Below are positions 3,440-7,727 of a DNA stretch of 64,000 nt, piece after piece. Position numbers and translations under genes: made by a program. Origin of the DNA: an uncultured Rivularia sp. GTDB taxonomy: Bacteria; Cyanobacteriota; Cyanobacteriia; Cyanobacteriales; Nostocaceae. The stretch is taken from contig OY762007.1 of NCBI GenBank assembly GCA_963665115.1, forward strand, positions 3,488,001 to 3,552,000. The letters are read 5' to 3'. The number at the start of each line of letters is the position of its first letter. Position 1 is the stretch's first letter. The notes beneath the pieces are model-generated. The model did no database searches. It saw only the letters and a list, made by a program, of their open reading frames with translations, and was not told the origin of the DNA.

Positions 3440-3472
3440 AGCTATTAACTGATTCGGTTAATGGCTTTTTTA
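3440..3472 (+). terminator. Intrinsic terminator after the YbjN gene
   Basis: AGCTATTAAC...GTTAATGGCT hairpin followed by a T run. Confidence 0.65.
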
Positions 3473-3575
3473 TGCAATTAATTTGAAATTGTATTTAAAA
3501 TAATTTTTCTTAATTGAATACAAGCACAAATTATTTTATACTTAATACCGCGAGAAAGAAGTCATATGTTTTAAG

Positions 3576-4373
3576 ATGCAAAAAAGAAAAATTTTAATTG
3601 TAACCAAAACTTATCCTTCAATTAGCAGGAAATATAAAGAAACAGTTTGTACGGCAGGGGTTTTGCTGAGTGATTCTGAAAAACCGATACAATGGATTCG
3701 TATTTATCCGATTCGTTTTCGCTCTTTAGATTTAGATAAGCGTTATCCTAGATGGTCTATAATTAGTGCTGAGATAGAGAAGAATACAAAGGATTATAGA
3801 CAAGAGAGCTTTAGGATAAATGATTCGTCTATAGAGATTGTCAGAAAAATTAGTACAAATAATAGCTGGGAAGAACGAAAATCATTAGTTCTACCATTAG
3901 AATTTAATTCTGTCAGTGAAATCGCAAATGATGGCAATTCTTTAGGAATCATTAAACCTCAAAGTATTAAAAAGTACTTTTATCGAAACACGAGCCGTGA
4001 ATGGAGTTATAGACAGCAAGCTATTCAAGATCAATTAGATTTATTTGAACCTTCAGTAGAATTAGAAAAAATACCTTATCAATTTTGTTATGATTTTGTT
4101 GCAAAAGATGGTAAGCATCATAAATACTCTATAAATGATTGGGAAATAATGCAATTGTATAGAAATTGTAGAAATAATTCAGATGAAGAAACTCAAGAAG
4201 ACAAAGAAAAAGAGTCTTTAGAGAAAGTAAGACAAAAATTAGAAGATGATTTTTTAAACAACAAAGATTTATACTTTATAGTAGGTAACTTAAAAAATCA
4301 TAAAAACACTTTCATGATTATTGGTTTATTCTATCCCCCGAAATTAGAATTTGAACAGTTAAGTCTTTTTTAA
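3576..4373 (+). CDS. Conserved hypothetical protein (KTYP...VCTAG...WIRIYP family, possibly OB-fold) with two beta-clamp-type motifs
   Basis: Intact 265-aa ORF with internal QLDLF and C-terminal QLSLF; 16 nt upstream of a DUF488 gene. Confidence 0.75.
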   Translation: MQKRKILIVTKTYPSISRKYKETVCTAGVLLSDSEKPIQWIRIYPIRFRSLDLDKRYPRWSIISAEIEKNTKDYRQESFRINDSSIEIVRKISTNNSWEERKSLVLPLEFNSVSEIANDGNSLGIIKPQSIKKYFYRNTSREWSYRQQAIQDQLDLFEPSVELEKIPYQFCYDFVAKDGKHHKYSINDWEIMQLYRNCRNNSDEETQEDKEKESLEKVRQKLEDDFLNNKDLYFIVGNLKNHKNTFMIIGLFYPPKLEFEQLSLF

Positions 4374-4389
4374 TTAATAAAGGTATAAA

Positions 4390-4812
4390 ATGAACAATAC
4401 ACCAACACATACTAGTAACTATATTTTGACCTTTGGATATGGAAATCGTAAAGATTATCAAGAATTTATCGAATATCTTGAGCAATATAAAGTTGCATAT
4501 GTAATTGATGTGAGAATTCGCCCTCGTGCTTGGAGTCGTAAATGGTACGGTGATGGGGTTGAAAAACTTTGTCTTTCAAAAGGAATTAAATATATCTCTA
4601 AATCGGCTTTAGGTAATACATCAGGTAATGCAAAATGGGAACCACCAGATAAGCAAGAAGCTGAAAAATCATTGCAAGAAGTTGCAGAAATTGCTTTTGA
4701 TGGAACTGTTTTATTAATGTGTGCTGAAAAAGATTGGCATCGATGTCATCGTACAGAAGTAGCGAATGAACTTAAAAAGTTAGCGAAACTTCCCGTACAA
4801 CATTTAGTCTAA
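4390..4812 (+). CDS. DUF488 family protein
   Basis: TFGYGN, VIDVRIRP and LMCAEKDWHRCHR motifs; AAGGT ribosome-binding site. Confidence 0.85.
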   Translation: MNNTPTHTSNYILTFGYGNRKDYQEFIEYLEQYKVAYVIDVRIRPRAWSRKWYGDGVEKLCLSKGIKYISKSALGNTSGNAKWEPPDKQEAEKSLQEVAEIAFDGTVLLMCAEKDWHRCHRTEVANELKKLAKLPVQHLV

Positions 4813-4907
4813 TTCGACGTTATTTCATATTTAACCTCCTCTTTTCTCCTACTCCACGCTCTCAGCCTCTAGTAAGCTTTTTTATTCATACATTACCCAA
4901 CTTAATC

Positions 4908-6275
4908 TCAAACAACTTCTGCCGATATCGCACCCATTTTCTCCAATACCGCAGCAACTCGTAAAATCGCCGTTTCGTTATAAGGAGCGGCGATTAATTG
5001 CACTCCCAAAGGTAAAGCATTTTTACGTTGAATTGGAACCGATAAAACGGGTAAACCTATAAATGATAATGGTTGAGTAAATAAACCCAAATGGGGACGA
5101 ACTAATATTTCTTCACCATCTAAAATCATTGTTTCTTGTCCAATTTCCGGTGCTGCAATTGGTGTAGTTGGGGCAATAATTACATCTACATTTTGAAATA
5201 TTTCTCGAACCTTCTCTTTATACCAACTTCTAAATCTTTGGGCTTGAATATACCAACTACTAGGAATAAATGCCCCTGCAATAAATCTATCTCTTGTCGC
5301 AACATCGAAATCTTGGGGACGGGATTTTAATTTATCCAAATGTAAATTTGCGCCTTCAGATGCAGTAATTATGTATGCAGCAGCACGAGCGCGATGAGCT
5401 TCTGGTATGGAAACGTATTCAGAAACATTTAACGCATCGGCAACTTTCTGTACTGCTTCCAACGCTTCCGGTGCGGCTTTTTTGGTGAAATAATCGTCGG
5501 CGATCGCAATTTTTAATCCATCAATATTTTGTACATACGTTAAATGAGACGTTAAATTTAACGTCTCTACATTTTCACCTTGCAAAACATCGAAAGCCGT
5601 TGCAATATCTCTTACCGAACGTGCAAATGGACCAACATGGTCAAAACTGCTGGAAAATAGCACCACACCAGCCCGCGATAGCCTACCATAAGTCGGTTTA
5701 AAACCAAAAACCCCGCATAAAGCAGCAGGCACCCGAATCGAACCGTTAGTATCTGAGCCTAAAGTTAAAGGTACCAAACCAGCAGCCACGGAAGCAGCCG
5801 AACCTCCAGATGAACCACCAGCTACACGGTTCAAGTCGTGGGGATTGTGAGTAGCGCCGTAATGTGAATTCTCGGTAACAAAACCGTAAGCGTACTCATC
5901 CATATTCAAGGCACCGACAAGAATTGCACCGGCATTTTTCAACTTAGTTACAGCAGTTGCATCTTGAGTAGCTGGGGGATTTTCAGCATTGATTTTTGAA
6001 CCAGCAAGAGTAGTTAAGTCAGCGATATCGTAAAGATTTTTGACAGCAAAAGGTACACCAGCCAACAAACCGGGATTATTACCGAGGGCAATTTCTGCAT
6101 CAATTTTGGCTGCATCTTTCAAAGCAGTTTCCGCTGTCACAGTTGTAAAGCAGTTGAGTTGATTATCCCTGGCTGCAATTCTATCTAAAGCAGCTTTGAC
6201 AACATCTACCGCTTTAACTTTTCCTTGCTGTACTGCGGTTGCAATTGATACCGCATCGGCTGAGTCTAAATTCAT
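4908..6275 (-). CDS. atzE: AtzE-family amidohydrolase (amidase signature)
   Basis: GVPFAVKNL, GGSSGGS, GSDTNGSIRVPAA and NMDEYAYGFVTEN motifs. Confidence 0.85.
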   Translation of the reverse strand: MNLDSADAVSIATAVQQGKVKAVDVVKAALDRIAARDNQLNCFTTVTAETALKDAAKIDAEIALGNNPGLLAGVPFAVKNLYDIADLTTLAGSKINAENPPATQDATAVTKLKNAGAILVGALNMDEYAYGFVTENSHYGATHNPHDLNRVAGGSSGGSAASVAAGLVPLTLGSDTNGSIRVPAALCGVFGFKPTYGRLSRAGVVLFSSSFDHVGPFARSVRDIATAFDVLQGENVETLNLTSHLTYVQNIDGLKIAIADDYFTKKAAPEALEAVQKVADALNVSEYVSIPEAHRARAAAYIITASEGANLHLDKLKSRPQDFDVATRDRFIAGAFIPSSWYIQAQRFRSWYKEKVREIFQNVDVIIAPTTPIAAPEIGQETMILDGEEILVRPHLGLFTQPLSFIGLPVLSVPIQRKNALPLGVQLIAAPYNETAILRVAAVLEKMGAISAEVV

Positions 6276-7025: not shown

Positions 7026-7727
7026 ATGTCAGAAACTCCTAAATTTGATTTAAGTCGCATCAGGGTTGGTAATGCAATAGGTAAATTTAAAAGAAATGAA
7101 ATAGCCCTTCCAAAAAATAACTTCTCAAATACAGCTAAAGTTGATGAAGTAGCTAGTCAAAAAACTGAGACTCCCGAGATAGTCAAACTTGATGAAGTAG
7201 CTAGTCAAAAAACTGAGACTCCAGAGATGGTTAAAGCTGATGAACTAGCTAGTCAAAAAACTGAGACTCCCGAGATAGTTAAACTTGATGAAGTAGCCAA
7301 TCAGAAAACAAATAATCCAGAGATGGTTAAAGCTGATGAAGTAGCTAATCAGAAAACTGAGGCTCCAGAGATAGTTAAACTTAATGAAGTAGCCAATCAG
7401 AAAACTGAGGCTCCAGAGATAGTTAAACTTGATGAAGTAGCCAATCAAAAAACGACACTTCTTAGCGGAGAGCAAAAAAAACTCAGTGAATCAGCAAAAG
7501 AAATCCAAGCATTACTAGAACCATTACAAACAACTTACCCAACCAATTCTGACTACGAAAAGCAAGTGTTTGTAAATAAATTCAAGGAAGAAATAAGGAA
7601 AAACTATCGCGTTCAAGAAACACTTGTAGCTGGGGGAACTGAGTTAATTAAAATCATCTGTCAGCCCCTAGATATTCCCATTGAAATGGGTAAAAAATGG
7701 TTGGAAACAGCAAAACACTATCGATAA
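7026..7727 (+). CDS. Hypothetical protein with 16-aa tandem repeats and a cyanobacterial C-terminal helical domain
   Basis: 233-aa ORF; C-terminal 'QKKLSESAKEIQALLEPLQTTYPT'. Confidence 0.75.
   Translation: MSETPKFDLSRIRVGNAIGKFKRNEIALPKNNFSNTAKVDEVASQKTETPEIVKLDEVASQKTETPEMVKADELASQKTETPEIVKLDEVANQKTNNPEMVKADEVANQKTEAPEIVKLNEVANQKTEAPEIVKLDEVANQKTTLLSGEQKKLSESAKEIQALLEPLQTTYPTNSDYEKQVFVNKFKEEIRKNYRVQETLVAGGTELIKIICQPLDIPIEMGKKWLETAKHYR
7137..7456 (+). repeat. In-frame 48-bp tandem repeat, 6 full copies plus 1 partial
   Basis: Unit approximately AAACTTGATGAAGTAGCTAGTCAAAAAACTGAGACTCCCGAGATAGTT (KLDEVASQKTETPEIV). Confidence 0.95.

Follow-up and report, generated by a model that had tools for sequence, protein, structure and literature searches.

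A compact pair of genes in the genome of an uncultured Rivularia sp. raises the question whether a protein with two apparent motifs for binding to the sliding clamp, together with its DUF488 partner, forms a replisome-linked system for DNA processing or defence. The pair is located in what is called here the window, i.e., the whole stretch of 64,000 nucleotides that was analysed (contig OY762007.1, positions 3,488,001 to 3,552,000, of assembly GCA_963665115.1); the source genome is one contig of 8.69 Mb. Both genes, designated A and B, are on the plus strand and are separated by a gap of 16 nt. This tight arrangement, as well as the upstream terminator and the motifs QLDLF and QLSLF of protein A, had been noted in a preliminary description and was confirmed. 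The features are as follows (window positions):

3440..3466, plus strand: terminator-like hairpin downstream of the gene of the ybjN family, a stem-loop of 12 pairs with a T-run; it forms the left boundary of the variable slot
3478..4864, no strand: variable slot, flanked by ybjN and the amidase gene, with the cassette present, deleted, reduced to a relic or replaced in relatives of the genus
3576..4373, plus strand: gene A, 265 aa; PDC-M19B with predicted tandem OB folds, a distant relative of Pfam DuOB
3648..3650, plus strand: Cys25 of protein A, nearly invariant
4032..4046, plus strand: internal putative clamp-binding motif QLDLF, residues 153–157, modelled in a loop after helix 145–152
4356..4370, plus strand: C-terminal putative clamp-binding motif QLSLF, residues 261–265, the last five of protein A
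4390..4812, plus strand: gene B, 140 aa; stand-alone DUF488 protein with a predicted fold similar to PTP/dual-specificity phosphatases
4507..4515, plus strand: motif D40-V-R42 of protein B
4720..4752, plus strand: predicted active-site loop of protein B, C111-x-E113-x5-C119-H120-R121

Families and predicted folds of the two proteins

Protein A matched the PADLOC profile PDLC04508 (PDC-M19B) with an E-value of 8.9e-75, residues 1–263 being aligned to profile positions 1–267 of 269. For protein B a partial match to PDLC04505 (PDC-M19A; E 9.3e-13) was obtained in two stretches, besides a match to Pfam DUF488 (PF04343; 61.1 bits at a cut-off of 22.2, E 2.1e-16), which bears out the earlier assignment from the motifs TFGY, DVR and C111-x7-C119-H-R. 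Judged by these profile matches, the pair is a short cyanobacterial variant of the PADLOC candidate PDC-M19 (M19A plus M19B). A full-length M19B (protein A) and an adjacent DUF488 gene are common to both; the pair was filed as a variant and not as the canonical system, since protein B, with 140 residues, is devoid of the SocA/Panacea-like N-terminal domain (about 145 residues) of the M19A protein (about 294 residues), and since the gene order is reversed. In addition, this copy is a solo insertion. The cassette of two genes and 1.2 kb would represent a minimal form of PDC-M19. PDCs are predicted phage defence candidates (Payne et al., bioRxiv 10.1101/2024.01.29.577857), and relatives of the pair are found within restriction-modification operons, a setting from which the PDCs were also discovered; in the accessible main text of that work, supplementary tables aside (which may describe M19), M19, DUF488 and clamps are unmentioned. 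Literature searches yielded no paper naming PDC-M19 and none tying clamp-binding motifs to anti-phage systems.

Protein A had no match in Pfam, an NCBIfam search of the pair gave no matches, and neither A nor B had a significant sequence match among solved structures. Proteins from Rivularia and Calothrix are closest to protein A (86–89% identity). Its family, with 674 matches among 1,028 candidates and 1,826 clusters at 50% identity, occurs in bacteria, archaea, plasmids and prophages, with matches in Synechococcus elongatus and Methanosarcina acetivorans among others. An AlphaFold2 model of protein A from 148 sequences had a pLDDT of 96. RPA and baculovirus LEF-3 were the best Foldseek matches of the model (E 2.5e-5 to 2e-4, TM 0.2–0.34); with VIA, LEF-3 was the best (rmsd 8.0, 181 residues aligned), followed by single OB domains at Z about 6. 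The best structural matches of protein A were DNA-binding proteins with several OB folds, i.e., archaeal RPA, LEF-3, HIN200 and telomere proteins; with TM values of 0.2–0.36 and a best Z of 7.5 they are modest and therefore indicate the fold, not the function. Since they span both halves of the protein, A is predicted to contain tandem OB folds, in line with the possible OB fold that had been suggested before.

Reportedly, DuOB proteins with DUF488 partners were described by Burroughs and Aravind in 2023, who are said to have proposed a processing of DNA ends in virus-host conflicts. Features in common with that system would be the tandem OB folds, an N-terminal C-x-A-G...W-x-R-x-x-P and an adjoining DUF488 protein of the rhodanese-phosphatase superfamily. 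Protein A differs in being below the curated cut-off (27 bits) of the Pfam DuOB profile (PF22557), to which it had no match even at E 0.1; weak matches were seen in only 10 of 148 family members, the best with E 1.3e-4. One homologue of A, P0066, had an Atlas lead of 0.82, in a cluster with 46% DuOB. Titles and abstract openings revealed no paper on DuOB.

Cys25 is kept in 138 of 139 divergent homologues and in all 37 representatives of an archaeal clade (see below); other conserved polar residues are K11, R42, D73, R75, E77, R101 and D188-W-E190. So many near-invariant polar residues, C25 among them, hint that protein A may do more than bind passively. Fused longer forms of A were not detected among candidates of 574–2000 aa, which is weak evidence; a shared origin of A and B was also considered, and none was found.

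The intact cysteine site anticipated for protein B is present: D40, R42, G75, C111, E113, C119, H120 and R121 were invariant in 120 sequences, and in the model of B (pLDDT 91) C111 ends strand 106–111 and R121 starts helix 121–132. Tetrapyrrole methylase domains headed the structural matches (Z 9–10.6), followed by Cys phosphatases of the PTP/dual-specificity type (Z 8.0–8.3; 2dxp with an rmsd of 2.9 and 113 residues aligned) and RapZ-C (Z 6.4); since the methylases outrank the phosphatases, the chemistry cannot be read from the fold alone. Foldseek gave nothing at E 0.001 or better for B, its top rows being an RNA triphosphatase and PRL-1. The modelled fold is that of the Cys-dependent rhodanese-phosphatase superfamily, i.e., Rossmannoid, with a core strand that ends in the Cys and a following helix that begins with the Arg, and B is predicted to be an enzyme of the cysteine phosphatase type, although its Cys/Arg spacing is C-x9-R, compared to C-x5-R in classic Cys phosphatases. 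Enzymes of this superfamily, in which DUF4326 has also been placed, remove terminal phosphates via an active-site cysteine, according to the accessible part of PMC9503650. Among the DUF488 papers listed, judged by titles and abstract openings, there was no functional study.

Putative clamp-binding motifs of protein A

The two motifs are exact matches to QL[S/D]LF, the beta-clamp-binding consensus, which is typically C-terminal (PMC9690074, available text); its earlier designation as such was correct. Among 6,269 crude ORFs of the source genome (2.13 million residues) the pattern QL[SD]LF occurred 13 times, in 12 ORFs, with two copies in gene A only; by chance, about 0.008 ORFs with two copies would be expected per genome. 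The 11 other ORFs include, by eye, uracil-DNA glycosylase-like and methyltransferase-like ones with the motif in N-terminal position.

Conservation of both motifs was found. Among the 120 close homologues listed, 113 had an internal Q-x-x-L-[FL] and 65 a tail Q-x-x-[LI]-[FL]. The divergent set consisted of those 139 of the 150 representatives listed which were 240–330 aa in length; the great majority were 33–47% identical, and most carry no taxonomic assignment. In this set the internal five-residue motif of beta type (QxxLF-type) was present in 102 sequences (shuffled mean 12.6, maximum 22) and the tail motif in 59 (shuffled mean 6.0, maximum 16); at least one of them was found in 124, neither in 15. 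A PCNA-type pattern was not enriched in the same sequences (17 vs. 15.0 and 5 vs. 3.5). Across homologues, the internal site had Q in 81%, L in 75% and F in 78%, with variable flanks.

A homologue from a Sulfolobus plasmid led to a clade of 70 proteins, only a few of which carry organism names, these being Sulfolobales, Thermoprotei and Pyrococcus; dereplication of 69 full-length proteins at 80% resulted in 37 representatives. All 37 had L-x-x-[FYW] at the internal site (shuffled 10.3, maximum 19) and two had the QxxLF-type there, and a PIP-like tail, e.g., QKSLFNFF, was present in 16 (shuffled 4.1, maximum 12), with the strict QxxLxxFF-type in three. Since these thermophile homologues form one clade (SH-aLRT 100 in a quick tree of 64 rows), the switch of motifs in the thermophiles is to be counted as a single event. 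The tail of the haloarchaeal homologue from Natronococcus, QPGLDSF, is also of PCNA type; the homologue from Haloquadratum has kept QAKLF and has no tail motif. IS1634 transposases, which are proteins of mobile elements, likewise have QLxLF at the C-terminus in bacteria but a motif of PCNA type in archaea, and binding was shown for these motifs (PMC4549789, accessible part); their fold and function are unrelated to those of protein A, and they are a precedent for the motif switch only.

The binding to DnaN that had been proposed is favoured indirectly by the motif class, which follows the host clamp, and less so by modelling: a predicted complex of A with the DnaN of this genome had a score of 0.52, compared to 0.00 for the best control, with no interface given. 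The runs agreed in at least 86% of contacts, with a partner pLDDT of at least 82. In 157 solved pairs the mark for this score was attained 116 times, in 215 mismatched pairs twice; values of 0.60 or under comprised only 18 of the 157 solved pairs, yet both of the passing mismatches, and the score of A with DnaN could reflect remembered solved clamp-peptide complexes. The predicted complex lends weak support to clamp binding. In our judgement protein A very probably does bind the clamp, an estimate which is based mostly on the conservation pattern of the motifs. Motifs that track the type of host clamp would give the PDC-M19 family a place of action.

Alternatively, the role of the QxxLF motifs could be structural, i.e., packing against A itself or against B, with no connection of the pair to the clamp. 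The weakness of the predicted DnaN complex would fit, as would the monomer model, in which there are short bridges near both motifs and a fair degree of order in the internal block (pLDDT 81). Yet two separate sites hold the Q..LF spacing within flanks that vary, variants of six residues exist, many homologues do without the tail, and both sites turn to PCNA-type spacing in archaeal homologues; packing as the sole role of the motifs appears very unlikely.

Linkage of the two genes

A may recruit B, as had been suggested. Homologues of A co-occur tightly with DUF488 genes. ORF A was recovered in 169 of 172 loci examined, a set which includes duplicate loci. Where at least 1.2 kb was available on both sides (115 loci), a DUF488 gene was located within 300 bp in 112 and at 398 bp in one; with shorter flanks (54 loci) it was near in 45. 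The 157 near pairs comprised 87 with a long partner upstream, 31 with a short partner downstream, 19 in convergent orientation, 19 with a short partner upstream (some of these layouts being cut by contig ends) and one ParB fusion. The 31 loci have the layout of this cassette and are all close relatives of this copy. The long partners gave a full match to PDC-M19A (profile positions 1–292 of 294).

Deviating arrangements were also seen. In archaeal versions (L239:2439-4855 and L050:4974-7164), DUF488 is fused to ParB-HTH, as in Saccharolobus and Haloquadratum; CTP binding has been reported for an archaeal ParB-DUF488 fusion (bioRxiv 10.1101/2025.10.10.680097, accessible part). The Sulfolobus plasmid pSOG2 contains A without a nearby DUF488 gene, an integrase standing where the ParB-DUF488 gene would be. 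Behind the homologue from Natronococcus (L240:2501-3673) lies a 115-aa ORF of unknown family, and inspection by eye showed no DUF488; in Sulfolobales a small, by eye nuclease-like ORF follows A. At L118:5855-6208, a DUF4326 gene is located directly downstream of the A homologue, in the place of DUF488.

Alternatively, the pair could act like SocAB of Caulobacter, in toxin-antitoxin fashion or by abortive infection: A would block replication by filling the clamp pockets with its two motifs, and B would restrain A until it is set free by infection. SocB kills by binding to the clamp via such a motif (PMC9690074, available text), protein A is also a predicted clamp binder and is almost never found without B, and in 9 of 18 long partners the N-terminal domain matched SocA/Panacea antitoxins at E <0.1 (best 1.6e-4), each time under the cut-off. 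However, the Panacea-like domain is absent in this copy and in 30 other loci of the same layout, B is enzyme-like and has kept an invariant site of that kind, and A is a predicted OB-fold protein; moreover, A persists without DUF488 on pSOG2, and in the 19 convergent loci the genes are not co-transcribed. A SocAB-like action is therefore considered unlikely. The same N-terminal domain matched part of the DarG profile weakly (E 8e-5 to 0.007), which would be reminiscent of DarTG, but the cassette and 190 neighbours contain no ADP-ribosyltransferase or macro domain, and the link to DNA ADP-ribosylation loci drawn in the preliminary description could not be upheld: neither DarT nor a macro domain was present among the immediate neighbours. 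A search of the source genome for DarT was without a match, as it was in every control genome.

Proposed role, distribution and insertion site

For the pair as a whole, we favour a clamp-tethered defence module which processes DNA ends, a reading that we consider about evenly balanced between right and wrong. By means of the two conserved QLxLF motifs, protein A would likely ride on the beta sliding clamp, and at forks and gaps it would likely bind to DNA that is single-stranded or to DNA ends. The target of B at these places would be a DNA end that is phosphorylated or damaged, with Cys111 and Arg121 perhaps attacking the phosphate; A and B would cooperate, and the likely outcome would be defence against invading phage or plasmid DNA. 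Should this be true, the pair would be an immune system working from the replication clamp. In a wider and rather doubtful version, it would belong to an immune module common to bacteria and archaea, which surveys DNA while attached to the host clamp (beta for bacteria and PCNA for archaea, some of the latter having a ParB-type clamp fused to the enzyme), senses foreign replication intermediates via the OB folds and inactivates these at their DNA ends through cysteine chemistry; Cys25 of A might be a second catalytic or covalent site.

The other possibility to be weighed here is an accessory of host repair: linked to the clamp, the pair would clean DNA ends that are blocked, e.g., by 3'-phosphates or remnants of sugars, after the action of restriction enzymes, glycosylases or other conflict nucleases; it would not restrict phages itself. 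The clamp is the usual platform of repair enzymes (PMC9690074, available text), and an OB protein with an enzyme of predicted phosphatase fold would suit end cleaning. Relatives located between restriction-modification genes (L095, L157 and L193) are in accordance with such a role, and so is the retention of the cassette at one site in the genomes G401, G408, G410 and G414, at 82–84% DNA identity. Against it stands the distribution, which is as expected for defence genes: A is present in only 16 of 401 genomes of the phylum (7 of 27 of the genus), with repeated loss or replacement, and temperate phages carry the cassette in accessory positions. Nor was a recurrent glycosylase or ligase found among the 190 neighbours. 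We regard the repair role as somewhat improbable; if defence is not the function, the pair would be a new clamp-linked end-repair enzyme.

The neighbour set comprised 190 dereplicated immediate neighbours, one per side and at least 100 aa long, from loci of viral and metagenomic origin. Domains of restriction-modification type were present in 22, where ResIII matches may include other helicases, and several neighbours were Mu-like morphogenesis genes or integrases. Members of the family of A were present in 24 records of plasmids and in 7 of Gordonia phages; scans of viral contigs with single proteins gave no relative. In Gordonia phage Nymphadora (L045:5977-7274), gene 43 is a homologue of A and follows directly after the immunity repressor; gene 42, annotated as 'HipA toxin', is a DUF488 gene (E 1e-29). 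These genes likely occupy a prophage defence position. Nymphadora appears as a target phage in PMC6426606, in the accessible part of which genes 42 and 43 are not discussed. The cyanobacterial copies listed are, by eye, mostly alone among housekeeping genes and outside defence islands, which speaks against a role in defence.

In the genus, homology of the flanks with cassette-free strains stops at about 3471–3477. Several relatives have an empty slot between ybjN and the amidase gene; that of G407 contains a relic. In G424, G426 and G422 (where it is shorter) it is filled by another two-gene cassette on the minus strand (L224:111-1387, L231:69-1378 and L234:964-2252), which encodes coiled-coil proteins of about 130 and 295 aa, unrelated to A and B and without a significant Pfam or PADLOC family.

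The composition of the cassette had been described as very AT-rich and without HIP1 sites. Both statements hold as such: with a GC content of 30.7% it is among the lowest 1.7% of tiles of its size, the genome as a whole having 37.9%, and it contains none of the 2,618 HIP1 sites of the genome. The flanking 1.5–3 kb are, however, equally AT-rich, and the missing HIP1 is uninformative, since 67% of equal-sized genome tiles are also without one. Recent transfer, inferred from the lack of HIP1 and a sharp island of low GC, was rejected on these grounds, and also because the cassette is common to several members of the genus, at one site and with the identities given above. Sites with a stem-loop and T-run numbered 4, compared to 2.1 +/- 1.3 in shuffled sequences. 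A promoter-like site at 3514–3542 was discarded, there being no excess over chance (13 sites vs. 13.2).

Some further observations were made in the window. Two ORFs (647–1378 and 1384–2115) make up a split Ser/Thr kinase gene, where the relatives L034 and L036 have a single ORF of 486–490 aa; the split is due either to a frameshift or to a sequencing error. A short palindromic element inside the amidase gene (about 5546–5573) has many matches across the genomes of the genus, and an ORF of 233 aa (7026–7727) contains tandem repeats of about 16 aa.
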